A stretch of DNA of 64,000 bases from Candidatus Micrarchaeota archaeon (GTDB taxonomy: Archaea; Micrarchaeota; Micrarchaeia; Anstonellales; Bilamarchaeaceae). The position numbers were made by a program, and so were the translations under genes. Positions within the stretch are counted from its first letter, which is position 1; every line of letters begins with the position of its first letter. Positions 9,954 through 54,060 of the stretch are shown here, in pieces. Where the stretch lies: the NCBI GenBank assembly GCA_018812625.1, contig JAHJDH010000033.1, positions 3,622-67,621 of the forward strand. The letters are read 5' to 3'. The notes under the pieces are model-generated. The model was not told the DNA's origin, did no database searches, and worked only from the letters and a program-made list of their open reading frames with translations.

Positions 9954-9958
9954 TTTTT

Positions 9959-10582: not shown

Positions 10583-10583
10583 A

Positions 10584-33664: not shown

Positions 33665-33814
33665 CCAAACACCCCAATATAATTATGTAAAATAGTTCTT
33701 TTAACCTTACGTTTTAACATAAATTGACATAAATAGTTCCAAACGAGATATGAATAGTTTAAAAACTAACTGTTCAAATATCACTTTACACTTTATTGGG
33801 CCCGTAGCTCAGCA

Positions 33815-33863
33815 AGAAAACTTTTGGAAAAAGTTTTATCAAAACCCAGAAGTTATCCTGAAC
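33815..33863 (+). other. tRNA-Ile intron 1 (non-canonical, D-loop)
   Basis: Central 4-bp helix TCAG (33809-12) / CTGA (33858-61) is flanked by 3-nt bulges CAA and ACC. The inner helix is GAAAACTTTT / AGAAGTTATC. The outer helix is weak (relaxed BHB). Boundaries could shift by 1-2 nt. Confidence 0.65.
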
Positions 33864-33885
33864 CGGTTAGAGCGTTCGACTGATA

Positions 33886-33937
33886 CGAGCTTTTGGAAAA
33901 AGCTCGACCAAAACTTGCTTCCTAAAAGTTCTCGGTC
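33886..33937 (+). other. tRNA-Ile intron 2 (canonical 37/38 position)
   Basis: The anticodon stem TTCGA/TCGAA continues into the central helix CTGA (33880-83) / TCGG (33932-35). It is flanked by bulges TAC and TCA, followed by the helix GAGC / GTTC. This is a full hBHBh' motif. Confidence 0.8.
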
Positions 33938-33960
33938 ATCGAAAGGTCACGAGTTCAAAT

Positions 33961-33983
33961 CTCGCCGGGCCCATTTTCTTATT
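33961..33983. repeat. attL: 23-bp direct repeat covering the 3' end of tRNA-Ile
   Basis: ctcgccgggcccattttcttatt is identical to 47527-47549. Confidence 0.85.
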
Positions 33984-34012
33984 TTAAGGTCCAGTGTTAC
34001 GAGTTTTGTGTT

Positions 34013-34930
34013 GTGAAAAATACGTCAGAGTTCTTACCATACACGGAACCAGTTTTGGAAGTCCAAAACACAATATCTGATTTTGGCGGTCTATGGGCCC
34101 ATCTGAAATCAGATACCAAGCCAACAAGGCGCGAAACAAAACTAATGTGGCCAGAAGCAAAATTAATTTTGGAGTTCCTGGGCCGACATCTCCCCAAACA
34201 AAGATTGATCCGTGCACTGACGGTACTGAGCGACCATCGCAAGCGCAGATTCCTGCGCAGCAGGATTCCAAAATACGGATCTTTGAACAAAGGATTCACG
34301 GAAGATGAGCTTGTAAAGTTCCTGAATTGCGTGGATGATCATAAGGCTCTGCTACTATTCACTTTTCAGGCGGTTTTGGGCCTTCGGATCAGTGAAGCAG
34401 TGCAAATTCACGTCAAAGACATCAATCTCAAAACCAGGGAACTGAAGATCCACAATGTCAAGTGCGATCGTCTTGACGTTCTGCCAATCCCCCCACAACT
34501 TTTTGAACAAACAATAAAATACATCAGCGACTGGGAGGATGAAATCGTCAGGCACGAAGGCTACCTTTTCTACAGCGAGTTCTATCCAAGAAACAACAAG
34601 ACTCCCCATATCCGTACAGACTATGCAAGAGTATACTTCACCAAAGCACTAAACAAAGCCAAGCTTGACGAAACCTACGCAATTTCAACCGGTTCACAGC
34701 CCAAGCTCATGCACCGCCTCACCACTCACAGCTTGCGTCACTATGCCATCACTAACTTCGCAAAGAAAAACAACGGAAATGTCATGCTGACAAGCAAATT
34801 CGCACGCCATAGGAAGATCAATACGACGATGGTTTATGTCTACACCCAAAAAGAAGAACTTTACAGAAGCATAGATCTACTTCAGGATGGAACATTGGAA
34901 AAAATCCGGAAACTACAAGAGATCGAATGA
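34013..34930 (+). CDS. tyrosine recombinase / integrase
   Basis: Box I LGLRISEAVQI, box II HSLRHYAITNF, and catalytic Tyr region TTMVYVYT. GTG start; the true start is uncertain. Confidence 0.88.
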   Translation: MKNTSEFLPYTEPVLEVQNTISDFGGLWAHLKSDTKPTRRETKLMWPEAKLILEFLGRHLPKQRLIRALTVLSDHRKRRFLRSRIPKYGSLNKGFTEDELVKFLNCVDDHKALLLFTFQAVLGLRISEAVQIHVKDINLKTRELKIHNVKCDRLDVLPIPPQLFEQTIKYISDWEDEIVRHEGYLFYSEFYPRNNKTPHIRTDYARVYFTKALNKAKLDETYAISTGSQPKLMHRLTTHSLRHYAITNFAKKNNGNVMLTSKFARHRKINTTMVYVYTQKEELYRSIDLLQDGTLEKIRKLQEIE

Positions 34931-35017
34931 CTATTCTTTTCTTTCTAATAATGTCTTTAGATCTTTTTGATATGGATTCTCATTTAATACTAGAAAAGGT
35001 GAGATTGATTCAAAAGA

Positions 35018-35299
35018 TTACAGTGTGTAAATGATGCGCTTTGTTTCTGAGTCATATTTTTTGTTGACTAGCTGATTCTTTACTAATTTTTCAACAGCTT
35101 TATACGATGATCCTGAATATTTAACTAAACCTTCGCTGTTAAGTATTGAGTAAATTTCCTCATTTGTACGTGGTTTTTCTTCCAATAAGAGTAAAATTTT
35201 TAGGTGCATTCTATTTGACAATACGCAAAATTTTTTATTAAGATCCTCAAGATTGTCATAATTCAATTCAATTTGTGATAATATCATATAATCATCCAC
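35018..35299 (-). CDS. winged-helix (ArsR-like) transcriptional regulator
   Basis: 93 aa with VLSNRMHLKILLLLEEKPRTNEEIYSIL..AVEKLVKNQLV..KRIIYTL, the ArsR/wHTH pattern. Confidence 0.65.
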   Translation of the reverse strand: MDDYMILSQIELNYDNLEDLNKKFCVLSNRMHLKILLLLEEKPRTNEEIYSILNSEGLVKYSGSSYKAVEKLVKNQLVNKKYDSETKRIIYTL

Positions 35300-35317
35300 C
35301 GAGTATAATTTCCATGG

Positions 35318-35335
35318 AAGGAAAATTATTTCCTT
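35318..35335. promoter_or_regulatory. palindrome AAGGAAA-ATTA-TTTCCTT in the divergent intergenic region (putative operator)
   Basis: 7-bp perfect arms, located 19-36 nt upstream of the wHTH gene start and 46-63 nt upstream of the McrB-like gene. Confidence 0.35.
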
Positions 35336-35380
35336 TTATGGAAGAGAACTTTAATATTTTTAAATGTATATGTCTACTCC

Positions 35381-37660
35381 ATGCCCAACAATGATCTTCG
35401 TAAGAAAAAAGAGGAATTTGAACAAGATAATTTAACAATTTATAACGAAACAAAAGAAAAAGCACGAAACGAATGGACGAATTTTGATAAGAAGTTTGGG
35501 AAAGACAGTTTAACAAACTTGACATTATTGAGCTATTCTCTAGGTGATCCTGATTCTGATTCTTTTTCTAACTGGGTCGAAAAAAAGACCTCTTCTGTTG
35601 CAACGATTTCTGGTGGAAGTGCCGCAATGTTCTATGTCTGGTCTGAAAAAAAGCTCTATCCAACCAAATTTAAACAGGGAATGCTCGGGCACCATAACAC
35701 AAGGATTATTGACCGTAGTGTTGCTGAAATTGAATTTCAAAAAATCAAGAATACGATATTGAAAATTATATTGTTGGCCGAAAAAAATGATTTTAAATCA
35801 ATTGACGAATTAGATCTTCTTTCACCAGTTGTTAAGTCAAAAATATTGTACCTTTACTTCCCCGATAAGATTACTAGCATCATGGCTTCCACATACGTGG
35901 CTGAAGCATGTAAAATGATGGGCGTACTTTTTGATGATGATCATCCAATGGATTCGAATCACAGACTTTTAGCGAATATGAAAAAAAATGGAGAGTTTAA
36001 TGATTGGGATTCGCATAAAATCGGTTCTTTCCTTTTGTACTTGCTTGCCTATCGAACCCAGCCGAGCATTTTCATTGCTCCAAGACGGAGAGAACATAAA
36101 GGAGCTATAACAGAATCGACTGATGCGTTAGAAGGATATTCCTGGGTAGATGTCGAACCTTATCTAAACGATGATGAAAAACAGAAGTTAGAAGGAAGAA
36201 GTAGGTATCATATTTGGGGTAATAAAGGCGGAAGAACGCAAAAACAATGGCGAAAAATGCAAAAAGGGGATCTTATCCTTTTTTACGGCGACAACATCTT
36301 TTATGCAGCTGGAAAATTATATCATAAGACGCATAATAAGGCACTTGCTGATCATCTGTGGGACACAGATGAAGATGGGAGATCCTGGGGGTATACTTTT
36401 TTTGTTGAAAATCTAAAAACTATTTCAATCCCACTTCATCTATTGAAGCAACTTGCTCCTGAAGTTTATAGTGAGGGATTTCGACCACAACAATTCGTGG
36501 AGATGAATGAAAAATGTCTTGAAAAAATCCACCAGGAATTTGGATCAGTTGAAGGTTTCTTGGATAAGTACTCTGAGCCTCATATATTAAGAGAACTGAA
36601 AGCTCCAATAACTATTCAAGCTCCACAGAAATCAATGGAACAAGAAAATCCATGGAATATTACTCCGGAAATGTTAAATGCCGAGCTTCAGCACTTATAT
36701 TTTGATGAGCCTGATAGTTTTTTTAAAAACTTGTGTAATCTATTAAATTCTGGAAGTAATATAATTCTTGTAGGGCCTCCGGGAACTGGTAAAACCGAAG
36801 TGGCCCTAGCCGTTTCTAAGCTGGCTAAAAAATATGTGCTAGGAAAAGACGGAATATGTCATGTCTTTTCAACTGCAACTTCTGATTGGACAACTTTTGA
36901 TACGATCGGCGGTTATATGCCGACAAAAAGTAATGAGTTAGAGTTCAAAGAAGGACAGTTTCTTAGGGCAATTCGCGATGACAAAATTCTAGTAATCGAT
37001 GAAATAAACAGGGCAGAAATAGACAAGGCATTTGGACAATTGTTTACTGTACTTTCCGGACAAAGCGTTGAGCTGCAGTTTTTAGATGCTAACAATCTGC
37101 CAATAAAATTAGAATCATCCAAAGAAATCCTAAATAGTTTCAAAAAAGATAATAAATACATCATTGGCTCAAATTGGCGCATCCTTGCTACAATGAACAC
37201 CTTGGATAAAGCTGCTCTTTATCAGATGTCATATGCATTCATGAGAAGGTTTGCATTCGTCCATGTTGATGTCCCGATTAATAAATCTGAATGTCTGAAA
37301 ACAATCAACCGGCAAGACAATTATGATATGGATGATGCACTAATACAAAAAATTGGTATTCTGTGGGATTCAATAAGCAAATCCGAACAGGGAAAAGAAA
37401 ACCCAAGACAAATAGGTCCGGCTGTTTTTTCAAGCATTATCAAACTCGTAAAGAATAGCAATGTAGATCCTGCCGACGAAGATAAGCTGGATAAAATATT
37501 AGCCAGTGCAATAATCGCATTTGTCCTGCCACAATTCGAAGGTGCCACTGTCGAAACTGAACTGAAGCCATTGGCAAAGTCCCTTAAAAAATATGAGAAA
37601 CACCTAGCGAGGTTTTTTGAGGAAATGTTTGGAGAAGATTTTGGAAATCTTACGAGGTAG
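35381..37660 (+). CDS. McrB-like AAA+ (AAA_5) restriction NTPase with N-terminal sensor region including a PUA-like (EVE/ASCH-type) module
   Basis: Walker A LVGPPGTGKTE, Walker B ILVIDEINRAE, and McrB-type WRILATMNTLDKA..MRRF. The middle segment reads YHIWGNKGG..WRKMQKGDLILFYGDNIFYAAGKL, the PUA-like pattern. Confidence 0.8.
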   Translation: MPNNDLRKKKEEFEQDNLTIYNETKEKARNEWTNFDKKFGKDSLTNLTLLSYSLGDPDSDSFSNWVEKKTSSVATISGGSAAMFYVWSEKKLYPTKFKQGMLGHHNTRIIDRSVAEIEFQKIKNTILKIILLAEKNDFKSIDELDLLSPVVKSKILYLYFPDKITSIMASTYVAEACKMMGVLFDDDHPMDSNHRLLANMKKNGEFNDWDSHKIGSFLLYLLAYRTQPSIFIAPRRREHKGAITESTDALEGYSWVDVEPYLNDDEKQKLEGRSRYHIWGNKGGRTQKQWRKMQKGDLILFYGDNIFYAAGKLYHKTHNKALADHLWDTDEDGRSWGYTFFVENLKTISIPLHLLKQLAPEVYSEGFRPQQFVEMNEKCLEKIHQEFGSVEGFLDKYSEPHILRELKAPITIQAPQKSMEQENPWNITPEMLNAELQHLYFDEPDSFFKNLCNLLNSGSNIILVGPPGTGKTEVALAVSKLAKKYVLGKDGICHVFSTATSDWTTFDTIGGYMPTKSNELEFKEGQFLRAIRDDKILVIDEINRAEIDKAFGQLFTVLSGQSVELQFLDANNLPIKLESSKEILNSFKKDNKYIIGSNWRILATMNTLDKAALYQMSYAFMRRFAFVHVDVPINKSECLKTINRQDNYDMDDALIQKIGILWDSISKSEQGKENPRQIGPAVFSSIIKLVKNSNVDPADEDKLDKILASAIIAFVLPQFEGATVETELKPLAKSLKKYEKHLARFFEEMFGEDFGNLTR

Positions 37661-37662
37661 TA

Positions 37663-39039
37663 TTGAATATGGTTGAACTCAGAGAAGAAAGACCACTTAA
37701 AGATTATGACTCCGAATTTCTCGACAAACTTAGAGCAGACATTGGAAATGGAATCCTTCAAATATATCTCCATGAATACTCCGAATTACTACCTGAGCAA
37801 CGGAGATTAAAGGACGCGATAGGATCCAATTTTCTGGAACGCATTTGTGGTGCAGATTTAGAAAAATTAAAAAAAATTCATTATTGTATCCGTCGCTCAT
37901 ATGTCGAAGAGTTCAATAGAGAATTAGAAGCATATTTCAGAAATATTGTACATAAAACATCTAACAGAGTATATCCAAGAAAAGGATTTGTTCGTGGTAA
38001 AATTGAATGGAAACGTACTTTTGAAGGTCGACTCTGCCAGGGCAAAGATATGTCACTATTTTTTTGTAAAGAAATTGAGAAAGATTATGACCTGCCAGAG
38101 AATCTTATTCTAAAATTTTTGCTGTTAAAAATCGACTCATATATCTCAAGTTCTAAATTAGTTAAAGAAGGTGATGAAAATATTGAAGAGTGGAAGGTAG
38201 CACTAGCGAAATTAAAACATTTGATTGATAGGATAAAGAAAAATGTATATTTCAAAGAAATCGGCAAGAACTTATCACTGGGTGAATTGGAGCAAGCGAT
38301 CGGTTCCAGAACAGAATATTTGGCAAAAAATTCACGAAGTAAGTTTATCAGAGAACAACTCATTTCCCGTGCCTACGCCGAATATAAAATGCTCATGGTT
38401 TATAACTATTCCAACACACTTGATGAAGTTATCAAAAAAACAATCCTAAGTCCGAAAAACAATTCCCGTCTTTATGAATTATTCGCATTGAATTGCTTAC
38501 TACTTAATTTTATACAGTATACGAAGAAGGGCGACCTAAAACCTTTCAGAGGAACTGGGGATCAAATAGTTAGTTTTGAATTGCCTAAGTCAAATACTCT
38601 GGTATATATCTACGACAATACGCTTCCAACAAATTTCGTGGGAAAAGTTTACCCTAACTTGAAAAAGAGATATTTCCCAGGTACTGATCTAAATTCAGTT
38701 GACGAACAATCTAGAAGACCAGATATAATCATAGAACTAGTATCTACAAAAAATGGCACCGTTAAACGGGAATATATAATATTAGAAGTAAAATTAACGC
38801 GAGATAAGGGGTATATCAAAGAGTCTTTGTATAAAGTAATGGGGTATCTGTATGACTTTTATTTCAATGAAAAAGATATGTTCGCAAAACAGGCGATTCT
38901 TTTAGTTCATGAATGGGAAGAGCAAAGAAATATTGTAGATTCATCATACCCAATAATTTTGTTGAACTATATGAACTATAATGAGAGCATTAAGGAAATA
39001 GTTTTACATTTAACCCATAAACGTCTTAACATATTGTAA
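37663..39039 (+). CDS. McrC-like PD-(D/E)xK nuclease partner
   Basis: It starts 3 nt after the McrB-like stop. C-terminal RRPDIIIELV..YIILEVKLT forms a PD..ExK motif. Confidence 0.65.
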   Translation: MNMVELREERPLKDYDSEFLDKLRADIGNGILQIYLHEYSELLPEQRRLKDAIGSNFLERICGADLEKLKKIHYCIRRSYVEEFNRELEAYFRNIVHKTSNRVYPRKGFVRGKIEWKRTFEGRLCQGKDMSLFFCKEIEKDYDLPENLILKFLLLKIDSYISSSKLVKEGDENIEEWKVALAKLKHLIDRIKKNVYFKEIGKNLSLGELEQAIGSRTEYLAKNSRSKFIREQLISRAYAEYKMLMVYNYSNTLDEVIKKTILSPKNNSRLYELFALNCLLLNFIQYTKKGDLKPFRGTGDQIVSFELPKSNTLVYIYDNTLPTNFVGKVYPNLKKRYFPGTDLNSVDEQSRRPDIIIELVSTKNGTVKREYIILEVKLTRDKGYIKESLYKVMGYLYDFYFNEKDMFAKQAILLVHEWEEQRNIVDSSYPIILLNYMNYNESIKEIVLHLTHKRLNIL

Positions 39040-39070
39040 TATATTTGACTAGCAACGAATGCATTGTTCA

Positions 39071-40681
39071 CTATTGATTTTCTTCTATCTTTTTTTGAAC
39101 TAATGGTAAAAAGCAACTTTCGTAAATTCTTTTTGAAGCAGTAGATCCATAAGAATCTATTTTTGTCGGAAGTAATGTTTCTTTTTTGCTATAAAGTGCT
39201 TCAATGAATTTACCAAATGAACGTTCAAGATCAGACTGATTATCCTTGTAGAATTGTCGCAATTTTAAAAATACTCCAAATCCAGCATTTGATTTATAAA
39301 AATCTTCGAAATCCTTTTCACAAATATATTTCAAAGTTGCTAGATCAGATGAAAGTCCTTTAGAAAATTCAATTATTTTATTGTCCTCCTCCCCATTGTC
39401 ATTTATTAATTTTCTAAACTGAGGATCTGATTTTAAAGCGGTCACAAGACCAATAATTGTTGGTGTTTCCCTTGTCCTTTTTATGCCTACTGTCTTGTGG
39501 GTGTAAATTTGATTTTTTAGCACTGAGTCATTATTCATGTTCAAGTACAGTATGATTTTCGAAGCAATTTTTTTAGCAAAAAGTCTGTTTTTTCTGCTTA
39601 TCGACATTCCTATAAGAAGAACACAAACGAGATTCGGATCAACAGTTTTCTGAGTCGAATTAATATCAATGAACATTTGCATCTCATCTTCGTCACTCAA
39701 ATTATCAAAAATTACAACTGGTAATCTATTCCCTTCTCTTTGTTCAACTTTTAATTTTGCAAAGCCACAGACCCTATGCTGTCCATCTATTATCTTGAAA
39801 GATAGGTATGATTCTGGGACTCTAATTTTGACTGGAACTACGGGGTCATTTTCCTGTATGTTTTCACTTTCCTTAAGTTTTAAGGTATATCGACTTAATG
39901 CCACGTCAGATTTCAATATTATTGCATTTGGGAAAAGATGGTGGTGGTTGGAATTCTCGACATATTTCCAAATGTCCTTGATTTTTGATTCTTCTAAGAA
40001 TCTTTGATATCCTCCGATTTCATCTTCGAATGCCGATCTACGATGAACATATGCATTTTTTAAAAGGAATTCTGGTGAGAGAGATGCAACATAAAAAACA
40101 TGTCCATATCTATTCCTTATCTTTAATGCAGGTTCTGTGGAATTTTTTTCTTTAATTTTTTTCATTTTCATTGCTTTAAGTAGATTAAACCTGGCAAATT
40201 CCCCTAGAATCTTCTTATAATACATTAATTCATCTAATGATCCTTTGTTGAGTATGTAATTGTCATCATTTTCTAATACTCCTTTGTCGTCAATTTCTTT
40301 GCTTTTTTTCCAATAAATATCATCATACTTTAGGTCGACAAAAAGACGTTTAACCCTTAAAGTTTTTGGTATCTGCGGGTATTTTTCCAATACAGCTTCA
40401 AGGTATTCCTTTTTTGACCATTTTAGAAAAAAATCTTCTGCTTTAGCAAAACATTTTTCTTCCTGGTCTGTTACCTCCACAAGGATAATATAATCATCAT
40501 CACAAATGAAGATAGCGTCTAACTGGCCTACTGTTCTTCCTTTGTGGACAATGCTGCAACCTTTTCCACCGTCTAAGAAACCAAAACCAATTTCAACTAA
40601 AAATTCTGATACTTTGTATTCTGACAAAACATCAAAATCACTTTCAGAAAATTCTTTTTCTAAATACTTAGATCTTACCAT
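39071..40681 (-). CDS. DGQHR-domain (DndB/DpdB-like, ParB-fold) protein with an extra N-terminal domain
   Basis: Literal motif FKIIDGQHRVCGFAKL. The N-terminal ~100 aa (..GQLDAIFICDDDYIILVEVTD..) are weakly reminiscent of a restriction-endonuclease fold. Confidence 0.75.
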   Translation of the reverse strand: MVRSKYLEKEFSESDFDVLSEYKVSEFLVEIGFGFLDGGKGCSIVHKGRTVGQLDAIFICDDDYIILVEVTDQEEKCFAKAEDFFLKWSKKEYLEAVLEKYPQIPKTLRVKRLFVDLKYDDIYWKKSKEIDDKGVLENDDNYILNKGSLDELMYYKKILGEFARFNLLKAMKMKKIKEKNSTEPALKIRNRYGHVFYVASLSPEFLLKNAYVHRRSAFEDEIGGYQRFLEESKIKDIWKYVENSNHHHLFPNAIILKSDVALSRYTLKLKESENIQENDPVVPVKIRVPESYLSFKIIDGQHRVCGFAKLKVEQREGNRLPVVIFDNLSDEDEMQMFIDINSTQKTVDPNLVCVLLIGMSISRKNRLFAKKIASKIILYLNMNNDSVLKNQIYTHKTVGIKRTRETPTIIGLVTALKSDPQFRKLINDNGEEDNKIIEFSKGLSSDLATLKYICEKDFEDFYKSNAGFGVFLKLRQFYKDNQSDLERSFGKFIEALYSKKETLLPTKIDSYGSTASKRIYESCFLPLVQKKIEENQ

Positions 40682-40851
40682 TCTCTTTCCTCAGATGTTT
40701 TACTGTTGCTGATCTGTTATATTAGGCTAATTTCATAATGATTGTAAGGCTATATATAACTTATTATAATCCACTTCTATGACTTGTCAAATATGTTATT
40801 AATCAATGATTTCATGTGAAGTATTATTATCTTTTAGGCTGATTTCCCTCT

Positions 40852-41907
40852 ATGCGTTCTCCTGTCTCCAAATTTGACCATGTACAAGTTGTCAAATATG
40901 CTGGCAACAAGGCAAAATTATTAGGTCACCTGATCCCAATCATCACAAAAATTCTTGCACCAAATCAAACTCTTCTTGATCTTTTTGCCGGAACCCATGC
41001 TGTTGGTTATGCCCTTAAGACTAGAAATCGGATAATCGGCAATGATGTTCAAGCATATGGTTGGGCTATAGGAAAAGGAATATTGGAAAGTAATTATTCG
41101 CTCTCAACCGAATCAGCAAAAGATGAAATCTTAAGTATGTTTGATGATTTTGATTATGAAAAATATCATCTGTTTTCTGAAATATATTCAAATACTTACT
41201 TCGGTAAAAAACAATGTCTTGAGGTAGATAAATTAAAATTTGCGATTGATAACTCCAATATTCCAACCAAGAAGAAGTTTTCCTATTTATGTTGTCTTAT
41301 GTACTCTATGGGTCAAAATGCCTCTACTACTGGTTATTTTGCACAATATCTACCTCGAGAAAAAACAAAACAACAAAAATCTAGAAGTATCATAGACCAC
41401 TTCTTAAAAAAATGCAATTCTTTTAACCTTGTAAAAGGATCGTCCAGAAACATTTCTTTGAAATATGATTACAAAAAATTATTTTCTGATAAAAGACTTA
41501 CTCACTACATTGAAGATAGTGCTGTTATCTATGCAGATCCCCCATACTCTCAGGCGCACTATTCTCGTTATTATCATATTCTTGAAACGTTGGTTGAATA
41601 TGACTATCCAAAAACATCTTACAAGGGACTTTATAGGCCTGGACGTTTTCTGAGTGATTTTTGCAGAAAATCAACTGTTGAGAAAGAATTTCAAAGAATG
41701 TTTTCATCTATTGCAACTCATGACAAAAAACTTGTTTTGTCCTATGTCAATTCTGGAAGTGGTTTGTTGCCTGAGAAAAAACTACTTGAAATTGCATCTA
41801 CTGAATTTAGTAATGTTTCTGAGCCCATAAGATTTAACTATCACCATTCTCGGTTGGGCAATGGAAAACCTCTCAAGGTAGAGGAATATGTGCTTGTTTG
41901 TCATTAA
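40852..41907 (+). CDS. Dam-like (D12 class) N6-adenine DNA methyltransferase
   Basis: VKYAGNKAKLL (Dam N-terminal motif), LLDLFAGTHAVG (FxGxG) and IYADPPYSQAHYSRYYH (DPPY). Confidence 0.85.
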   Translation: MRSPVSKFDHVQVVKYAGNKAKLLGHLIPIITKILAPNQTLLDLFAGTHAVGYALKTRNRIIGNDVQAYGWAIGKGILESNYSLSTESAKDEILSMFDDFDYEKYHLFSEIYSNTYFGKKQCLEVDKLKFAIDNSNIPTKKKFSYLCCLMYSMGQNASTTGYFAQYLPREKTKQQKSRSIIDHFLKKCNSFNLVKGSSRNISLKYDYKKLFSDKRLTHYIEDSAVIYADPPYSQAHYSRYYHILETLVEYDYPKTSYKGLYRPGRFLSDFCRKSTVEKEFQRMFSSIATHDKKLVLSYVNSGSGLLPEKKLLEIASTEFSNVSEPIRFNYHHSRLGNGKPLKVEEYVLVCH

Positions 41908-41986
41908 TCCATAGTACTACTTTTTGACAGTCTAATCTTACACACATATCCAAAAATAGATACTTTTATAAATCATTTGTTGCATA

Positions 41987-42018
41987 TTAATGTCATTAGC
42001 AAAATGTTAATGTGATTA
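41987..42018. promoter_or_regulatory. two operator-like near-palindromic 12-mers spaced 20 bp, between a TATA-like box and the 77-aa gene
   Basis: TTAATGTCATTA (41987-41998) and TTAATGTGATTA (42007-42018). The core TAATG-T-CATTA is palindromic. TTTTATAAAT lies at about 41964-41973. Confidence 0.4.
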
Positions 42019-42019
42019 A

Positions 42020-42253
42020 ATGGTAAAACCAAGAGTTGAAAATGAATCTAAAAGCGATAAATTCAAAAGGATAGCCACTATGAGAACTAGGAAAATTATT
42101 GATGCCATTAGGCTTCTTGGAAATTGTTCGAATACCTCGACCTATGGGTATACTGATGAAGATGTGAAAGCAATCTACAACGCCATTGAAAAAGAGATTA
42201 AACGGACCAAGGTACTTTTTCAAAAGAAAGTTGATGATGATTTTTCATTATAG
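42020..42253 (+). CDS. small hypothetical protein (77 aa), possible controller/regulator of the downstream operon
   Basis: First gene of a tightly spaced operon, basic and helical, preceded by the operator-like repeats. No HTH motif confidently recognised. Confidence 0.5.
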   Translation: MVKPRVENESKSDKFKRIATMRTRKIIDAIRLLGNCSNTSTYGYTDEDVKAIYNAIEKEIKRTKVLFQKKVDDDFSL

Positions 42254-42262
42254 GTGATTTGA

Positions 42263-44032
42263 TTGACTAAAAAAATAAAGATTTTAGAAAAACCTACTGA
42301 TTCCCAAAGACAGGAGATATTGATGAGAATCTCCCAATTATATAATCATCCAGAATATGTCGTTTATGAATACATTCAAAACTCTATTGACAGTGCTTTT
42401 GAAATTAAGGACAAAGAACCTTCATATGATACAAGAAAAATATTAGTGCATATCGATTATTCTAAAAAACAGTTTATCATTCAGGATAACTGTGCTGGTA
42501 TGGATGAAGAAGAGATTGAAAACCTTCCAAATAGCGTCTTTCAATCTAGGAAAAAGAGATCTCCTTGGATAACTGGGGAATTTGGGTATGGAATTCAATC
42601 CTTTAGGGCTTGGTTCGACGAAATCCTTATTGTTTCAAAGGCAAGTGACCAATCAAAGGCAACAGCTATCATCTTTAATCAAAGTGTCGATGCTGAAATA
42701 GATGAAAAAAAGAAATTGCCTGATTTTGGAGCTGTTTACCCAGTTAGGGCTAGTTCAATAAACTACAAAAGACCGACCGGAACTGATGTTTGGATAAAAG
42801 GAATTAGAAAAAAATTACGGAAAAAATCTTTTGACTTTATTGCAAAAAACCTTTTTACATTGATCCCTATCCACTTTGAAGATGCTCTTGAATCTGGATT
42901 GGTAGAAATCCAGATTTATGACTGGAAACGTAGATCTGGAAAATTCTTTCCACGTGTTTACCAATTAAATCCACTGAGACTTTCAGATATCCCAGGAGAA
43001 GACATATCTGGAACTATAAATGATAACTCTGGTAAAAAACTTGCTAGTTATCACTTTAAAATTGTCGAACCTATCTACTTCAACAAAACACCAGAGATCA
43101 AGGATTACAAACCAAGGTTAAGTAGGCTTGGTACTGAACTCGGAAAACTAAGTCGCTTAAAAAGCCTCCAAGATTTTGGTAGATCGAACGATGTAGATCT
43201 ATTGATCTGGGATAGGCCTGAATTAATCGGAAAAATAAATATAGAAAGAAAAATCCCCATCCGCATTGACAGGACTGATTTAGAACCATCATTGGAAAGT
43301 CAAGTATTGTTTGATAAAATTGCAGAATTAACCCTCCAAATCCAAGAAAAATTTGATGAAATGGATAAAAGGAAACTCGAAGAACATGAAGAATCACTTT
43401 CAGAGATAATGTCCGATGTTTTTACTGACCTCTCAAAAGAGTTAGATGCTGATTTATTTGGACGAAAAAGAAAAATACGCAGTTCTAGCGGCTTAATAAC
43501 TTCTATGATAGAAACTGGTGCTGGATTTGTTCTTGGTAACAAAGATTTCCATGGAGACGGATCTCAAAAAGGAGACGTGTCTTCTCAAATTGATGATTCA
43601 GGAAAAGAAGGTATCGAATCAACTATATCTGATGAAAAAACCCCATCTCCTTCAGAAGAAGGTACTGGACAAATGCCATATAAAGATATAAAACAAAGAG
43701 GCATGGGCGTGGAATTCAAACCTCTTGGTACTACTCAACCTCCATCAAATGTTTGGGGAGATAGAATGATAGTAGTCAATACCGAACATCCATTTTACCG
43801 TGAAAGACTTACTGAACATAAGAGCAAAATTATTACAAAAAGACTTATAGCTTACCTAGCTATTGTAACTACTCCATGGTTCCTTGATAAATATTGGAAT
43901 AAAAGAGGTGTAGAGCCTGAAAGTACCGATAAAATTCAAAAAATTGTCGAGACGATAGCGAGAGTAGAAAAAATACTTTGGGATAAAAGAGAACTCATAA
44001 AGAAAAAAGTTGCAGAGGTAGAAGATGTTTGA
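42263..44032 (+). CDS. GHKL-superfamily (MORC/HATPase_c_3-like) ATPase
   Basis: N-box EYIQNSIDSA, G1 box QDNCAGMDEEE and G2 box GEFGYGIQSF. The remaining ~350 aa have no recognised motif. Confidence 0.8.
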   Translation: MTKKIKILEKPTDSQRQEILMRISQLYNHPEYVVYEYIQNSIDSAFEIKDKEPSYDTRKILVHIDYSKKQFIIQDNCAGMDEEEIENLPNSVFQSRKKRSPWITGEFGYGIQSFRAWFDEILIVSKASDQSKATAIIFNQSVDAEIDEKKKLPDFGAVYPVRASSINYKRPTGTDVWIKGIRKKLRKKSFDFIAKNLFTLIPIHFEDALESGLVEIQIYDWKRRSGKFFPRVYQLNPLRLSDIPGEDISGTINDNSGKKLASYHFKIVEPIYFNKTPEIKDYKPRLSRLGTELGKLSRLKSLQDFGRSNDVDLLIWDRPELIGKINIERKIPIRIDRTDLEPSLESQVLFDKIAELTLQIQEKFDEMDKRKLEEHEESLSEIMSDVFTDLSKELDADLFGRKRKIRSSSGLITSMIETGAGFVLGNKDFHGDGSQKGDVSSQIDDSGKEGIESTISDEKTPSPSEEGTGQMPYKDIKQRGMGVEFKPLGTTQPPSNVWGDRMIVVNTEHPFYRERLTEHKSKIITKRLIAYLAIVTTPWFLDKYWNKRGVEPESTDKIQKIVETIARVEKILWDKRELIKKKVAEVEDV

Positions 44033-44777
44033 TAAAACAGTTCTCGTAAAACTCCAAAAACTTGCAAGTGAATATAAAAGGGCGGATCTGCCAAATACTA
44101 AAATTAGCAAACTATGGGAAATTGGAGATTATCTTATAAAAATTGGTTTAACCTCACAAGGGGATTTTTGGAAAATTCAGAAACAAGACGTTTTTGTTAG
44201 TAGGGCCATCCTGCTTAGATCATATTGGGTCCGAAAAGCATTTACTAAGTCCGAAGTGGAAAAAATAAATCTAAATATCTCAAAAATTTTACCAGTCCTT
44301 CCTTATCTTGCTCCAAAATCAAAAAAATTATCTCCAAAGGAAAAACAAGTGATCAAGAAGAAAATATTACATAATGAAATCCCCACTGGAATAAAATTAG
44401 CCAAAAAATCTAAACAAAGAAAAATAGAAACTCTGGAACTTGTAAAAAGACTTAATCTCTTGATAAAAACTATTGAATCTGAAAAAATTAGTCTCTTTAA
44501 GAAACAATATCCAAAACAAAATTTTGAACATTTGAAGAGGCAAATTATTGATCTACTTCAGGGCGCTTTACCAACCGAAAAACACACAGATTCCTTAGAG
44601 CATGCAAAAAGCTTTGCCTTAAATATCGATCCTCAACTCTCTGAAATATTCGATATCTTATACATTGCAGCAAAAAAAACAAGGACGGACTCAAGACGCA
44701 TGCAAAAAAGAGTTTTTGACCCATATCTGATTTCTCCTTTTGTGGATCAACTCTTCTTCAAAAAGAAAGAAATCTGA
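44025..44777 (+). CDS. hypothetical helical protein, translationally coupled to the GHKL ATPase
   Basis: The ATG lies 8 nt inside the end of the ATPase gene. 250 aa, K-rich and helical, with no recognised motif. Confidence 0.55.
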   Translation: MFDKTVLVKLQKLASEYKRADLPNTKISKLWEIGDYLIKIGLTSQGDFWKIQKQDVFVSRAILLRSYWVRKAFTKSEVEKINLNISKILPVLPYLAPKSKKLSPKEKQVIKKKILHNEIPTGIKLAKKSKQRKIETLELVKRLNLLIKTIESEKISLFKKQYPKQNFEHLKRQIIDLLQGALPTEKHTDSLEHAKSFALNIDPQLSEIFDILYIAAKKTRTDSRRMQKRVFDPYLISPFVDQLFFKKKEI

Positions 44778-44834
44778 GAATCTTTCTCATCAATATGACT
44801 AAAAATTGTGACTTCTTTCATTTATTGTGATAAC

Positions 44835-45728
44835 ATGAATAACTATTGGATATTTGTGGTAAATGACTGGAAAGATTCATCTGGTCACAAGCACAAGGCA
44901 AATGAAATTTTTGATACTCTGAAAGTAGATAAAGTTTGGGGTATTGGAGAGCGTACTCCAAATAGAAAGAATTTGTCTTCTGGAGATAAAGTTGTTTTTT
45001 ATCAAGCAGGTTCAAATGGACAAAGATTTCTTGGTCATGGAACCTTATCATCTAAATGTAAACATTTTTCTAAAGATTCTCATTATTCTGAAAAAACTAA
45101 TAATATCATTTACGAATGGGGTAACATTGTTACATTCGAAGATTTTGATGCTTTTGAACAATCAAAACCTCTTTCAGATCTGGCCGAAAACTTGGATTTC
45201 ATTGTAAAAAAGGAAATGGCTGCGGCTTATTTTCAAAGTGGTGTCAGATCAATAACAAAGACTGATTTTGACATGATTGTTTCTGAAGATCTTGTTAAAA
45301 TATCTCAAAAAGGCCAAGAAGAAGGTATTGAAGATAAAGGTTTGTTCGTTCTTGAGAAATATCTCCAAGATTTTATTGTTAGTAATTGGGATAACATCGA
45401 TTTTGGTCAAAAACTTCGTATTTATCAAGATGATGATGGAAATCCTGGTCCGCAATATACTACTGATGTGGGTTATATAGATATCTTAGCAATTGATGAA
45501 AAAAATAATTTTGTTGTAATCGAACTGAAAAAAGGACGTGAGAGCGACAAAGTTGTAGGTCAGTTACTCAGATATATCGGCTGGGTAAAAAAGAATTTGG
45601 CAACCAAAGACCAAGGTGTTCAAGGAATTATAATCTGTAAAGATCTTGATGAAAAACTTGAATATGCCGTATCTGCAGTTTCAAACATTTCGATAAAACG
45701 GTATAGTATGAGCTTTAAATTACTCTAA
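44835..45728 (+). CDS. PUA-like (EVE-type) domain fused to a NucS/DUF91-type PD-(D/E)xK endonuclease domain
   Basis: N-terminus YWIFVVNDW..VWGIGE..LSSGDKVVFYQAGSNGQRFLGHGTL. C-terminus DVGYIDILAIDEKNNFVVIELKKGRESDKVVGQLLRYIGW, the NucS C-terminal signature. Confidence 0.75.
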   Translation: MNNYWIFVVNDWKDSSGHKHKANEIFDTLKVDKVWGIGERTPNRKNLSSGDKVVFYQAGSNGQRFLGHGTLSSKCKHFSKDSHYSEKTNNIIYEWGNIVTFEDFDAFEQSKPLSDLAENLDFIVKKEMAAAYFQSGVRSITKTDFDMIVSEDLVKISQKGQEEGIEDKGLFVLEKYLQDFIVSNWDNIDFGQKLRIYQDDDGNPGPQYTTDVGYIDILAIDEKNNFVVIELKKGRESDKVVGQLLRYIGWVKKNLATKDQGVQGIIICKDLDEKLEYAVSAVSNISIKRYSMSFKLL

Positions 45729-45736
45729 TCTCTCTC

Positions 45737-45809
45737 GGCAAAACGGATTTAATGCCCAAGCCTTGCCAGTTCGGTGCTTTGCACACGAAGACAATAAAAC
45801 CGTTTTGCC
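45737..45809. other. GC-enriched structured element A (long hairpin)
   Basis: A perfect 10-bp closing helix GGCAAAACGG / CCGTTTTGCC encloses the inner hairpin TTCGGTGC-TTT-GCACACGAA. It starts 9 nt after the nuclease stop codon. Confidence 0.4.
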
Positions 45810-45863
45810 TTGGTTTCCTGTCTTTCTTCAATTCTAATTTTCTAAATGCCTAGTTGAAACCTC

Positions 45864-45935
45864 GGAAGTTTACTCGCTTCATCATCAGCCCTGTAATGGT
45901 GCGGGCTTCGAGTGAAGCTCGCTTGAATAACTTCC
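45864..45935. other. GC-enriched structured element B (three stacked helices)
   Basis: Helices GGAAGTT/AACTTCC (45864-70 / 45929-35), GCTTCA/TGAAGC (45876-81 / 45913-18) and AGCCC/GGGCT (45887-91 / 45903-07). An alternative pairing is ACTCG/CGAGT. Confidence 0.4.
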
Positions 45936-46046
45936 TCGACAGGAGAGTTCGGGGAAGAGCAGGTGATGAAAAATGAATGTAGGAAATTTCGAAGGAGTTT
46001 GGGAAGGAGAATGTTATCGGTGCTGGTTTGAAAAGAAGGTGGAAGA

Positions 46047-46400
46047 ATGACGCAAAATTTCAAGAATCTGAAAGTATATGGAGAATCATTTAGATTATCT
46101 AAAGATCTCTACCTTTTCTTTCATGATAAAAAAATGTCTTTTAGAACAAAAGAGCAAGTGTTAGCCTCAGCTTCTTCAATCTGTGCAAATCTAGCTGAAA
46201 TGGCTGCATTTGACTCAAAAGGAGCAATCAAGCAGAAGGTTACAACTTGCATTGGAGAATGCAATGAAACTGAATATTGGCTTGATTTGATGCACGAGTT
46301 AAAGATTCTGCCTCAAAGAGAGCATATTGATTTTCTTGGGAGACTTGTGAAAATCCGGAGTATGCTCTTCAATTTGAAAAGAAGTGTGGAAGGTGGTTGA
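46047..46400 (+). CDS. four-helix-bundle protein (23S rRNA intervening-sequence protein / DGR Avd-like family)
   Basis: 117 aa starting NLKVYGESFRLSKDLY..RTKEQVLASASSICANLAEMAA..GECNETEYWLDL.., the characteristic pattern of this family. Confidence 0.7.
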   Translation: MTQNFKNLKVYGESFRLSKDLYLFFHDKKMSFRTKEQVLASASSICANLAEMAAFDSKGAIKQKVTTCIGECNETEYWLDLMHELKILPQREHIDFLGRLVKIRSMLFNLKRSVEGG

Positions 46401-46475
46401 ATGTAATAATCTGGAAATAATGAATGAAAACTCCCAAGGTTGCTCCTATGCTTTGCATAGCTGGTCAGGAAGATA

Positions 46476-47195
46476 CTATCGCTTCACTAGTGTTTTTGAT
46501 TCATCCTTGATGATCTTGTTCATTTTTCCTATCATTATGTCAATAATACTAATAGCTTCATCAAAGCCTTTATCATGACTGCTCAGAAAAGAAAGCTCTG
46601 CATCATTGATTATTTTATCTAATGATTTGTATCTTAGAAGTACTCTATCTAATATGGGTTCATCATATTTTACTCTGCGTCCAATTTTTTCATCCTTCAA
46701 CAATATATCCTGGAGTTCTCCATATTCTTGAGTAAGCTTTTCATTTACTTTTGAAAATTTCTTTCTCTCCTCCTCATTTATCTTTATGAACTTTCTTTGT
46801 TTTGCTATTGCTTTATCAACCATTTTTCTTAATTTAATTAAATTTTTCTTAAATGCAAGTAATTTCGCCCTATTAGATTTTGCTTCTTCAGGCGTGTACC
46901 CTCTATTAACCGCATTATTTTTTTCTTTGACAGTTGTTTTTTCTGTAAATTTCTTTTTAGGCTGCCCTTTTGTTTGTTCTCTTGTTTGACCTTTGAAAAA
47001 TGAAGGTATCTCTATTTTTTCAAACTTTTCTAGGTGTAAAGTTATCCCGCCGAAAATTATTAGTACGATCGAATAAATGCCATTTACTCCCAACTTACCT
47101 TCCACGAGTGATACTAGTAAAACTGCCACTCCCACAAGGAAGGTAATTATTGAAATTAGTACTTGCGACCATTCCTTAATTATTTCCAAATCCAT
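46476..47195 (-). CDS. hypothetical membrane protein with a long coiled-coil tail
   Basis: Two N-terminal TM helices, then a K/E-rich helical region. Confidence 0.55.
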   Translation of the reverse strand: MDLEIIKEWSQVLISIITFLVGVAVLLVSLVEGKLGVNGIYSIVLIIFGGITLHLEKFEKIEIPSFFKGQTREQTKGQPKKKFTEKTTVKEKNNAVNRGYTPEEAKSNRAKLLAFKKNLIKLRKMVDKAIAKQRKFIKINEEERKKFSKVNEKLTQEYGELQDILLKDEKIGRRVKYDEPILDRVLLRYKSLDKIINDAELSFLSSHDKGFDEAISIIDIMIGKMNKIIKDESKTLVKR

Positions 47196-47200
47196 TTACT

Positions 47201-47335
47201 CTACCTTGCAACCAATAAATAAAGTCCAATAAGCACAAGGCCTAATGGTACAACTGGCTCTTGTGTTTGTATATATACGACAATTCCACTTGTAACTATT
47301 AAGGCACCAATCACATGAATTGTAATTCTTCTCAT
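47201..47335 (-). CDS. possible small membrane protein (44 aa, below the track cut-off)
   Basis: Hand translation gives MRRITIHVIGALIVTSGIVVYIQTQEPVVPLGLVLIGLYLLVAR*. Its stop is 5 nt from the start of the downstream membrane-protein gene. Confidence 0.3.
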   Translation of the reverse strand: MRRITIHVIGALIVTSGIVVYIQTQEPVVPLGLVLIGLYLLVAR

Positions 47336-47442
47336 GCTTAACGAATTAGAGAAACTCTTTTTTAAATAGAATCAAATAACCTAATGTCATAAGGTGAAAA
47401 GAAATGAAATCTGCAAAAAAGAAGTTCAGAAAGCAGCAAAAC

Positions 47443-47526
47443 AAAACTGCAAAACTCGGAACAGAAAACTGCAGAACTCACGACGTAAAACCCACAACTC
47501 TAAACCCTAAACTCAAAACTGAATTG
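47443..47526. repeat. about four imperfect 22-nt tandem units (AAAAC..AACTC..) abutting attR
   Basis: Units start at 47443, 47465, 47487 and 47509. The first two share 16 of 22 positions (AAAACTGCA-AACTC--AC). Confidence 0.5.
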
Positions 47527-47549
47527 CTCGCCGGGCCCATTTTCTTATT
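47527..47549. repeat. attR: second copy of the 23-bp direct repeat (displaced tRNA-Ile 3' fragment)
   Basis: ctcgccgggcccattttcttatt is identical to 33961-33983. Confidence 0.85.
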
Positions 47550-47581
47550 ATCGGTTTGCAGTTTTGAGTATTGAAAAAACT

Positions 47582-48073
47582 TCAATGATCTTGTGCCAGA
47601 GCATCCATATCATATCGTATCCCATTAGATATCCTAATCTTACGTAAATCTATGATGATTTCTCTAACATATCTTTTCATAAGCTGAATCTCCTTTTCGC
47701 TAATTTCAATAGTATGACCTGGTTTAGAAAATACTTTTTTCGACAATATCTGAATTTCTCCATCAACTGACCGTGGTTCGCAGTGTGCAATCTCATTTCG
47801 AAATTCGACTATCTTTTTCAGTTTTTTATAAACATTATCACCTAACTTTTTATTTACTTTTTCTGTTTTGCAAATGGATGAGAAAATGGGGAGTTTTGGT
47901 CCAAAAGTCAACCTCTCAAAAAATGTTTCTCTAAATAACTGTCTTTTTTTATAATTTGATTGAGAAAAATAATCAAGAATGAAATTTTCTATTTCAGTTT
48001 CAGCAATGATTGAATATTGAATTATTTTTCCACATCTTATAAAAAATTCAGTATGTTTTTTAGGTTCCATCAT
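47582..48073 (-). CDS. hypothetical protein with a HEPN-like Rx4H motif
   Basis: 163 aa, helical, with ..IVEFRNEIAHCEP.. (R-x4-H). The assignment rests on this motif only. Confidence 0.4.
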   Translation of the reverse strand: MMEPKKHTEFFIRCGKIIQYSIIAETEIENFILDYFSQSNYKKRQLFRETFFERLTFGPKLPIFSSICKTEKVNKKLGDNVYKKLKKIVEFRNEIAHCEPRSVDGEIQILSKKVFSKPGHTIEISEKEIQLMKRYVREIIIDLRKIRISNGIRYDMDALAQDH

Positions 48074-48184
48074 TCCTAATTGTTTAGATATGAATAAAAA
48101 ACGGGTCTGGAAATAATTGATCTCGTATATTTATGATAATGTTAAATCTTTGATGATCCTAACATATTACGAGAGGTATAATCA

Positions 48185-48577
48185 ATGGACATGGACAAGA
48201 TTCTTTCTATCAAAAATGTTCCAACTGGCTGTATGATAATTGCAGCCCTAGCTATAACTGGCGGACTCTCACAACCAGAAAATCTTTTCATTTGGCTTTC
48301 AGTTGGAGGGGTTTCATTTGTTTTTGGGCTAATTACATTTGCGTTAAATTACCTAATTAGAAAACACGAAGCCGACCAAAAACTCAAAACAGAAAAAATT
48401 AAATCAAAAAGGCAAAAAGACCAATCAAGACACAGAGAAACTCAACTTAATAAAAAACTCACAGCCGAATCTCAAAAAACACAGAGAGAATACTTACGTA
48501 GAGAAAGGGCGCAGATGAATATTCAATCTACTAATACTGATAATGCTTGGAAAACAATAAGAGGTTTATTTAGATGA
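48185..48577 (+). CDS. hypothetical membrane protein with a basic coiled-coil tail
   Basis: Two TM helices, then a K/R/Q-rich tail. Confidence 0.5.
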   Translation: MDMDKILSIKNVPTGCMIIAALAITGGLSQPENLFIWLSVGGVSFVFGLITFALNYLIRKHEADQKLKTEKIKSKRQKDQSRHRETQLNKKLTAESQKTQREYLRRERAQMNIQSTNTDNAWKTIRGLFR

Positions 48578-48695
48578 AAAACATGGGAACTCCCAGAAAG
48601 AAGTTCAAAAAGCAGCAAGGTTCCTTGTATTTTTCCTAACTCGAAGCAGCTAAAAGTTAATAGCTATTGATGAAATTATCTATCAAGGTGAAAAT

Positions 48696-52707: not shown

Positions 52708-52754
52708 TGCTCGGGCACGTCAGCGTTTTAAATTTCATCATTCATAGCCTAATT

Positions 52755-54014: not shown

Positions 54015-54060
54015 TATTATAATAAGGAAACCAGATAGTCTAGTTATCGAAGGTGGGCGA

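Follow-up and report, generated by a model that had tools for sequence, protein, structure and literature searches.

The 64,000-nucleotide (nt) stretch analysed here, referred to as the window, is positions 3,622 to 67,621 of contig JAHJDH010000033.1 from a Candidatus Micrarchaeota archaeon (GCA_018812625.1). Positions 33961–47549 of the window are bounded by a 23-bp direct repeat at a tRNA-Ile gene and encode a tyrosine integrase, a structured RNA, an Avd-like protein, and restriction and defence genes. This stretch is probably an integrated mobile element of a Micrarchaeota-specific family, with an integrase that is split by its own integration, a backbone of RNA and Avd-like gene, and exchangeable cargo. 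The family is large and apparently has not been described so far. The integration sites (attL and attR), the two pieces of the integrase, and the backbone features are listed here with their strands; lengths of proteins and open reading frames (ORFs) are in amino acids (aa).

33798–33973 (+): tRNA-Ile(GAU), the integration target, called by ARAGORN after in silico splicing
33961–33983 (+): attL core, first copy of the 23-bp repeat, covering the 3′-terminal 13 nt of the tRNA gene and 10 nt beyond it
34013–34930 (+): Int(C), the C-terminal piece of a split tyrosine integrase (PF00589, 7.6e-17)
45706–45960 (+): degraded copy of a conserved structured RNA, from alignment and RNAalifold
45973–46050 (+): micro-ORF of 25 codons, MNVGNFEGVWEGECYRCWFEKKVEE, read directly from aligned sequences
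46047–46400 (+): Avd-like four-helix-bundle protein (23S rRNA intervening-sequence protein; PF05635, 9.1e-18; TIGR02436, 9.4e-18)
47404–47574 (+): Int(N), the N-terminal piece of the split integrase, a 56-aa ORF (MKSAKKKFRKQQNKTAKLGTENCRTHDVKPTTLNPKLKTELLAGP...) crossing attR
47527–47549 (+): attR core, the second and exactly matching copy of the 23-bp repeat

The 23-mer CTCGCCGGGCCCATTTTCTTATT has two exact copies in the window, at 33961–33983 and 47527–47549. No further copy was found in the window at ≤3 mismatches or in 100 shuffles. The part of the tRNA gene inside the repeat comprises the 3′ strand of the T-stem, the 3′ strand of the acceptor stem, and the discriminator. ARAGORN and Rfam missed the unspliced gene at the first repeat copy because it contains two introns, at ~33814–33863 in the D-loop and at ~33886–33937 at the canonical 37/38 position (borders approximate). 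In silico removal of both left a 74-nt sequence that ARAGORN identified as tRNA-Ile(gat). The D-loop intron occupies a non-canonical position, and orthologues in relatives carry one or two introns. The orthologous tRNA-Ile is present in contigs L008, L182, L186, and L187. The initial annotation had described perfect 23-bp repeats at these positions and had assigned the first copy to the T-stem and acceptor 3′ strands of tRNA-Ile plus 10 nt, and both points hold. It had also allowed that the second copy might belong to another tRNA-related gene; that copy lies within no tRNA and is preceded by a small conserved ORF. GC content is 0.346 within the element and 0.396 in the left flank. The tetranucleotide distance between element and left flank is 0.247, compared with a mean of 0.119 and a maximum of 0.144 for left-flank chunks of the same size. 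Both measures, proposed as a check in the initial annotation, set the element apart from its left flank.

The integrase was previously placed 30 nt inside attL. A PF00589 ORF does begin there, with GTG at 34013, but it is only the C-terminal fragment of the protein, and the N-terminal part lies across attR at the far end. The Int(C) frame is open from 33962 across the core. Int(N) has 41 codons ahead of the core (47404–47526) and a GGTGA ribosome-binding site upstream, and its ORF continues past attR into a relic integrase linker. Related elements have a conserved Int(N) at their right end as well. When the two ends were joined in silico as attP, a single uninterrupted Int(N)-core-Int(C) ORF was obtained in three relatives: L008, whose 7.8-kb element has a 14-bp repeat and occupies the same tRNA-Ile site; L009, with 7.0 kb and a 15-bp repeat; and L012, with 9.6 kb and a 20-bp repeat. 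The joined ORF is open in most of 30 genome loci, including those of a distant subclade (40–50% identity). Both repeat and Int(N) could be located in 26 Micrarchaeota relatives; joined ends are in frame and open in 23 of these, against a chance expectation of about one-third. All 14 Int(N) homologues begin with ATG, and their length differences are exclusively in-frame insertions or deletions. Database proteins of the family often read leftward through the tRNA end (e.g., "EIRGSIPRGP"), which shows that no stop in the core closes the integrase frame and that this frame lacks its own conserved start. Two Int(N) genes (L186, reverse complement 11480–11535; and L018/L009) carry, between the TEN and THD motifs, an in-frame insertion of 16–18 codons at an identical position, and the L186 insertion appears imperfectly palindromic by eye.

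L170 has an intact full-length integrase of 366 aa (9755–10861), identical to database protein P0097, where Int(N), core, and Int(C) meet at a junction. The L170 gene sits in a chromosome-size contig. An Int(N)-plus-core remnant, comparable to the one in L186 described below, can act as a landing site, and the newcomer then keeps a full-length integrase gene. Landing of this kind could be how "suicidal" elements stay excisable.

Int(C) is 60–69% identical to Micrarchaeota integrases and retains all 56 invariant columns of the family alignment. The catalytic residues R125, K150, H239, R242, H266, and Y275 are intact in Int(C) and invariant in an alignment of 30 sequences that includes the window protein. 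PF00589 was matched by 30/30 aligned members, and PF16795 (Phage_integr_3) by 0/30 at E ≤ 1. The best profile matches in the Protein Data Bank (PDB) were archaeal XerA (4a8e, 2e-11; 5hxy, 2.3e-9), and no SSV integrase annotation was present among the 10 PDB matches listed at E ≤ 10. A search against integrase families had been recommended in the initial annotation. It showed the window's integrase family to be PF00589/XerA-like and not of the PF16795 clade of SSV, pTN3, and pT26-2 suicidal integrases. Where integrase homologues at 46–69% identity have a named source, it is nearly always called Micrarchaeota; these relatives and synteny with a Micrarchaeia MAG point to the same kind of host.

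The backbone was delimited by an all-against-all comparison of four elements, in which Int(C), Int(N), and the Avd-like protein were the only components common to all. Identity between these elements is 75–89% for Avd and 60–70% for the integrase. The window Avd is 75–80% identical to its copies in the three first related elements, while their integrases are 60–63% identical to that of the window. Avd is the most conserved protein of the family backbone, with ~105 clusters at ≥63% identity. In the subclade with ≥50% identity, 13 of the 14 genome loci that are long enough carry the Avd gene after the integrase. It is also found in ~30 metagenome contigs, and its usual place is 0.2–1 kb upstream of Int(N).

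A conserved region lies upstream of the Avd genes and measures ~300 nt in intact copies of the RNA. RNAalifold folded this region into 75 predicted pairs, of which 36 show changes on both sides. An independent covariation count gave 92% of cells paired and 36 doubly changed pairs, whereas shuffles gave 15.2 ± 2.5 (0/500 reached 36) and slid controls gave 4–13. An invariant G-U pair places the RNA on the same strand as Avd. In an nhmmer search of all fetched loci, the RNA was directly upstream of 47/48 Avd genes. The one Avd gene without the RNA and every unlinked full-length RNA match are at contig ends, and the only other match is a 58-nt fragment in L109. Rfam gave no match for the window RNA copy at E ≤ 10 or for three intact copies at E ≤ 0.5. 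The micro-ORF lies between RNA and Avd; its stop codon shares bases with the Avd start (ATGA), and the two may therefore be translationally coupled. Homologues with a WEGECYR.W motif, or the longer G.WEGECYR.W...EV, are found upstream of Avd in L014, L018, and L012.

The Avd-like gene and the structured RNA are thus invariant family backbone and not cargo. Everything between the repeats had been called accessory; this is correct for most genes but not for these two, given the 47/48 linkage and the presence of Avd in 13/14 loci. With low confidence, we suggest that the RNA and the Avd-like protein may assemble into a complex with a role in maintaining or regulating the episomal form. The protein is a clear PF05635/TIGR02436 member beside a structured RNA, like the Avd of diversity-generating retroelements and the 23S rRNA intervening-sequence proteins. 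Unlike those systems, the module is not inside an rRNA gene and its RNA has no Rfam match. A reverse transcriptase domain was found in 0/14 scanned element ORFs, and a template/variable repeat pair was not specifically searched, so a diversity-generating retroelement was not identified. An RNA guide segment matching the element's own att site, as in IS110 bridge RNAs, was also considered and rejected; own attP matches are 7–10 nt, compared with 7–17 nt to the RNAs of other elements. Five metagenome contigs (L161, L175, L116, L163, and L117) end inside the conserved RNA, and many Avd homologues are on contigs of 0.5–1.5 kb. The module is probably a multi-copy repeat that breaks assemblies, and the elements are likely under-assembled in metagenome-assembled genomes (MAGs).

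Comparison of the insertion site among relatives revealed polymorphism. A 97-kb contig of GCA_018822695.1 matches the window at 99.97% identity, and its site is occupied. Short Logan contigs from two sequencing runs match the window, and the site is occupied in all of them. The 215-kb contig L186 is 91.5–93% identical in both flanks and has the same tRNA-Ile and the identical 23-mer, and the 13.6-kb content of the window element is absent from it. Its two cores are separated by only 0.69 kb, which contains a 141-aa membrane ORF and an Int(N) gene followed by the second core, CTGCCGGGCCCATTTTCTTAT. L186 therefore keeps both cores and Int(N) and is without Int(C), cargo, RNA, and Avd. Past the second core, 1.2 kb of unique sequence precedes homology that begins at window position 48621. 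Insertion at the 3′ end of tRNA-Ile by way of an integrase, as first claimed, is genuine on the evidence of the repeat, the integrase, and this presence/absence polymorphism.

Other relatives carry different arrangements at their sites. L182 (flanks 80% identical) has an orthologous integrase at the same tRNA-Ile site, L187/L188 (85%) have the RNA/Avd module in opposite orientation beside the same tRNA, and L008/L014 have a different 7.8-kb element at the same tRNA-Ile. L121 and L138 share host flanks and carry different elements, as do L134 and L158, where the elements are in opposite orientations. Two integrase subgroups use the same tRNA 3′ end in opposite orientations (L134 versus L158; L187 versus the window), and either Int(C) or Int(N) abuts the full tRNA. 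Relatives target tRNA-Ile, two tRNAs that look like Val by eye, and other tRNA ends. Scanning one genome per species yielded 213 relatives; of the 79 loci listed, most bear Micrarchaeota or Micrarchaeia in their titles. Several MAGs hold 3–5 family copies.

The remaining genes of the element are cargo, most of them for restriction or defence, as follows.

35018–35299 (−): small winged-helix regulator, weakly PadR-like (PF03551, E = 0.0016, below the Pfam cut-off)
35381–37660 (+): McrB-like type IV restriction NTPase (AAA_5, 9.2e-17; PD-T4-1, 6.4e-25; McrB, 5.4e-13)
37663–39039 (+): 458-aa partner of the McrB-like gene, McrC-like by position only; its start adjoins the McrB-like stop
39071–40681 (−): DGQHR-domain protein of the DndB/DpdB family (TIGR03187, 6.6e-32; DpdB, 1.1e-21; DndB, 1.8e-11)
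40852–41907 (+): D12-class N6-adenine DNA methyltransferase (PF02086, 4.9e-18; Type II MTase, 2.6e-31)
42020–44777 (+): co-directional trio of a 77-aa protein, a 589-aa GHKL/HATPase_c_3 ATPase (PF13589, 3.4e-9), and a 250-aa protein
44808–45728 (+): fusion of EVE and PD-(D/E)XK (NucS-like) nuclease (NucS_C, 3.2e-10; EVE, 2.4e-6; PADLOC PDC-S02, 1.2e-47)
46476–47195 (−): 239-aa membrane protein, weakly like 2TM/SLATT effectors (PADLOC 2TM effector, 4.7e-5; SLATT_6, 0.063)

The McrB-like protein has an N-terminal PD-T4-1-like domain and an AAA_5 domain. Its gene is one 759-aa ORF in the window and two genes (242 and 385 aa) in the near-identical GCA_018822695.1 contig (L005); 5 mismatches and 1 gap in 20.6 kb set that contig apart from the window. 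No profile for McrC or for any other family in Pfam, PADLOC, NCBIfam, or PHROGs matched the 458-aa partner. Within the trio, the GHKL ATPase gene is at 42263–44032 (+); the 77-aa (42020–42253) and 250-aa (44025–44777) proteins had no profile match in the libraries searched, which included Pfam, PADLOC, and PHROGs. The EVE-nuclease fusion is likely a modification-dependent restriction enzyme, judging from its domains. Inside the 2TM gene, positions 46557–46608 (−) weakly match the sR12 C/D-box small RNA (23.4 bits against a gathering threshold of 38; E = 0.034), probably by chance. Cargo differs completely between the elements compared, and that of relatives is likewise defence-like (type IIG restriction-modification enzymes, Mrr, and proteases). 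No capsid, packaging, replication, or conjugation family was matched by the element proteins in Pfam, NCBIfam, PADLOC, or PHROGs. Every item of the earlier gene inventory (regulator, defence genes, Avd-like gene, membrane protein, and structured RNA) was found, and its statement that capsid, replication, and conjugation genes are absent holds in these profile searches.

The accessory DNA extends past 47549, where the initial annotation had ended it. Three features were recorded there.

47550–48620 (no strand assigned): relic of a neighbouring element of the same family, from sequence comparison; L186 homology resumes at 48621
47582–48073 (−): weakly HEPN-like gene in the relic
48185–48577 (+): 130-aa transmembrane protein in the relic

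The residues ATCGGTTTGCAGTTTTGAG immediately right of attR (47550–47575) resemble an integrase linker and are in frame with Int(N), and 48574–48620 resembles the start of an Int(N) gene. These two remnants and the L186 homology from 48621 indicate that a neighbouring element lay at 47550–48620 and that deletion left only a truncated relic of it. Synteny with L014, a more distant relative, returns only at ~51.5 kb, and GC is low until there. At 51496–55269 are three tandem paralogues (403, 435, and 402 aa), CapK_C-like in a relative's annotation, followed by surface-polysaccharide genes. The CapK_C-like gene is single-copy in L014, a Micrarchaeia MAG.

A life cycle can be proposed from this arrangement. 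In the free circle, which has never been observed here, the structured RNA, the micro-ORF, the Avd-like gene, and a full-length integrase of ~350 aa would be contiguous, with attP within the 5′ part of the integrase ORF. The integrase would recombine attP with a tRNA 3′ end, here that of tRNA-Ile(GAU); the tRNA would be restored, the direct repeat made, and the integrase gene split. After integration, the catalytic Int(C) would lie beside the tRNA and the 41-codon Int(N) at the far end beside the Avd-like gene. Whatever lies between the stop codon of the integrase and the 5′ end of the RNA would be exchangeable cargo, in the window a McrBC-like system, a DGQHR protein, an adenine methylase, a GHKL ATPase, and an EVE-nuclease fusion. 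Excision would require a full-length integrase supplied by a related element or by a tandem junction. On the right, the window copy abuts a decayed older element.

Several observations weigh against this reading. In the predicted attP of the window, the frames of Int(N) and Int(C) are offset by one nucleotide, and this copy does not give a single continuous ORF. In the frame of Int(N) (frame A), the core is read CTC GCC GGG CCC and a TAA stop follows just past it; in the frame of Int(C) (frame B), the sequence is GGC CCA TTT TCT TAT TTT AAG. Because of this offset, it is the relatives that carry the split-gene reading. The third-codon-position excess of Int(N) is weak (0.297/0.277/0.340 across 14 homologues), and its conservation may be partly at the DNA level, for example as integrase arm sites. 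No empty site was found in the element's own population, where all contigs with identical flank proteins are occupied. The empty-site comparison proposed in the initial annotation produced a presence/absence polymorphism, in the 13.6 kb missing from L186, but the L186 site holds a remnant and is not a cleanly empty attB. A circular form, also sought at that suggestion, was not recovered: none of ~60 complete metagenome contigs has a terminal overlap, and a 23-mer search of JGI metagenomes found no exact attB/attP junction for the window element.

Only ~3/44 tRNA-proximal junctions in the orientation of this element are off phase, and the nearest relatives are in phase in different ways. The L182 attL is in frame A, with one nucleotide fewer in the T-rich stretch, and the L186 attR is in frame B, with CTGCC in place of CTCGCC. 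These differences indicate that a single-nucleotide insertion or deletion separates the window copy from the intact arrangement. The window RNA is also damaged; its 5′ end is cut by the nuclease gene, it has an internal deletion, and it forms 47/75 consensus pairs, compared with 66–75 in other copies. With an out-of-frame attP and a truncated RNA, the window copy is probably stuck. We infer a recently immobilised element that is kept as a defence island and is mobilisable, if at all, only by a related integrase.

The frame break is TTT-TAA-G or TTT-TAG-G in the window (33974–33990) and in L109 (~115–140) and resembles a +1 slip site at a stop. The same two elements have the longest perfect repeats (23 and 24 bp) among the tRNA-proximal-Int(C) (group 1) elements examined, and in both, GGGCCCA encodes Gly-Pro in both frames. 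Programmed +1 frameshifting is at most a possibility, since a single T inserted before AAG or AGG makes the stop automatically and L182 and L186 show plain one-nucleotide insertions or deletions.

The initial annotation, with its integrase gene starting 30 nt inside attL, would fit a classical pNOB8-type element, in which a complete integrase just inside attL stays intact on integration and the right-end ORF is unrelated or represents arm-binding sites. This is the best-surviving alternative, and we regard it as unlikely. It would account for the possible GTG and TTG starts in the window Int(C), the out-of-frame right-end ORF, the weak codon-position signal of Int(N), and an integrase that is XerA/PF00589-like and not SSV-like. 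It would not predict in-frame open junctions in 23/26 relatives where ~1/3 is expected by chance, nor a family frame that is open leftward through core and tRNA end with no conserved start downstream of the core. The constant ATG and ribosome-binding site of Int(N), its in-frame insertions and deletions only, and the full-length 366-aa gene at a junction are likewise against it. In pNOB8-type (type II) elements the integrase gene survives integration, whereas in this family the ORF crosses the core and its N-terminus lies at the far end.

A decayed provirus or integrated plasmid, with capsid and replication genes lost or unrecognisable, is very improbable. Archaeal virus proteins are often unrecognisable, and the ORFs at 37663–39039, 42020–42253, and 44025–44777, which have no profile match, could be read in that way. 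No hallmark genes were found with PHROGs or Pfam, and no provirus was recognised by them. The integrase and Avd are the only genes common to the four elements compared, where a virus or plasmid family would share a capsid or replication protein; the wider survey beyond these four followed the integrase, Avd, and Int(N) only. IMG/VR contained no close relatives; a single-sequence search returned nothing, and a profile search returned matches of only 21–32% identity. That no mobile element exists, and that local duplication of the tRNA 3′ end created the repeat around ordinary variable chromosome, is hardly credible: the lack of a free form and of a clean empty site would fit, but a tyrosine integrase lies in the expected position beside the repeat, the tRNA-end repeat architecture recurs at ~25 to 30 independent loci with different tRNAs, the same site shows presence/absence and replacement polymorphism, and composition is distinct from the flank.

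An integrated element with a self-split integrase is therefore retained as the preferred explanation and can be set against known systems. Suicidal (SSV-type, type I) elements include SSV1/SSV2, pTN3, pT26-2, and TKV and are known from Sulfolobales, Thermococcales, Archaeoglobales, and a few Methanosarcinales (PMC8371274, PMC7253208). Self-destroying integrases have been described only in archaea. A 2021 review gives them a single origin in one protein clade, mostly in hyperthermophiles, and states that all known suicidal families (SSV, pTN3-like, and pT26-2-like) share PF16795 (PMC8371274). Other reported split-integrase cases are five Methanosarcinales integrases and one SSV1-like integrase in Thaumarchaeota. 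No literature on such integrases in Micrarchaeota or DPANN was found in a limited literature collection.

The window element acts like SSV-type suicidal elements, yet its integrase falls outside their protein family. As in those elements, integration is in the 3′ part of a tRNA gene and is marked by a direct repeat, the host is an archaeon, and attP lies inside the integrase ORF, so that Int(C) and Int(N) are found at opposite ends, each abutting the core. Tandem or related copies can also regenerate the full gene, and relics and chimeras gather at tRNA genes. Unlike SSV-type integrases, the window family has a PF00589/XerA-like catalytic domain, and none of 30 members has PF16795. Its hosts are DPANN Micrarchaeota, many of the sequences being from sediment and groundwater metagenomes and not from hyperthermophiles. 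Its backbone has a structured RNA and an Avd-like gene in place of a replication protein, and its Int(N) is very short (~41–46 codons).

Other systems are similar in part. Cryptic elements of Thaumarchaeota, such as NitEve-E3, are small, tRNA-associated, and defined by an integrase, without virus or conjugation genes, and one has a split integrase (PMC6563490). NitEve-E3 differs in having an SSV1-like integrase and MCM (PMC6563490). The Thaumarchaeota elements are reported to have no signature gene beyond the integrase (PMC6563490), whereas the Micrarchaeota family has an invariant RNA/Avd module. The chromosome-dimer recombinase XerA (4a8e, 5hxy) is the closest solved relative by profile and has the same catalytic residues. 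The window protein scores 57.7 bits against the NCBIfam XerA model, far from its cut-off of 220, and its family is multi-copy, linked to tRNA-derived repeats and cargo, and split on integration, which are traits of mobile elements and not of a housekeeping recombinase. Bacterial islands and phage satellites (e.g., P4-like) likewise combine a small backbone, a tRNA integrase, and a hypervariable slot for restriction and defence genes; they differ from the window element in domain of life, integrase architecture, and backbone genes. We know of no helper virus for the family.

A further-reaching proposal is tentative and rates as a possibility only. The family may be an undescribed class of DPANN element in which the self-splitting architecture arose independently of SSV/PF16795 from a XerA-like recombinase, and in which a complex of RNA and Avd is essential to the life cycle. 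Such a complex might serve replication or maintenance of an episome that has no replication protein, control of recombination direction, or cell-to-cell transfer.

The family is abundant in Micrarchaeota, with 213 matches in species-representative genomes and ≤5 copies per ~1-Mb genome. A multi-intron tRNA target is invisible to standard tRNA finders, and such islands are therefore easily overlooked. The structured RNA is a new candidate that is supported by covariation and tied to an Avd-like protein. As a large natural family with remnants, tandem junctions, and full-length genes, these elements offer a way to test how self-splitting elements persist. If a second family, unrelated in sequence, has this architecture, then the self-destroying integrase must have evolved more than once. 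For their hosts, the elements appear to carry restriction and other defence genes from one very small DPANN genome to another.

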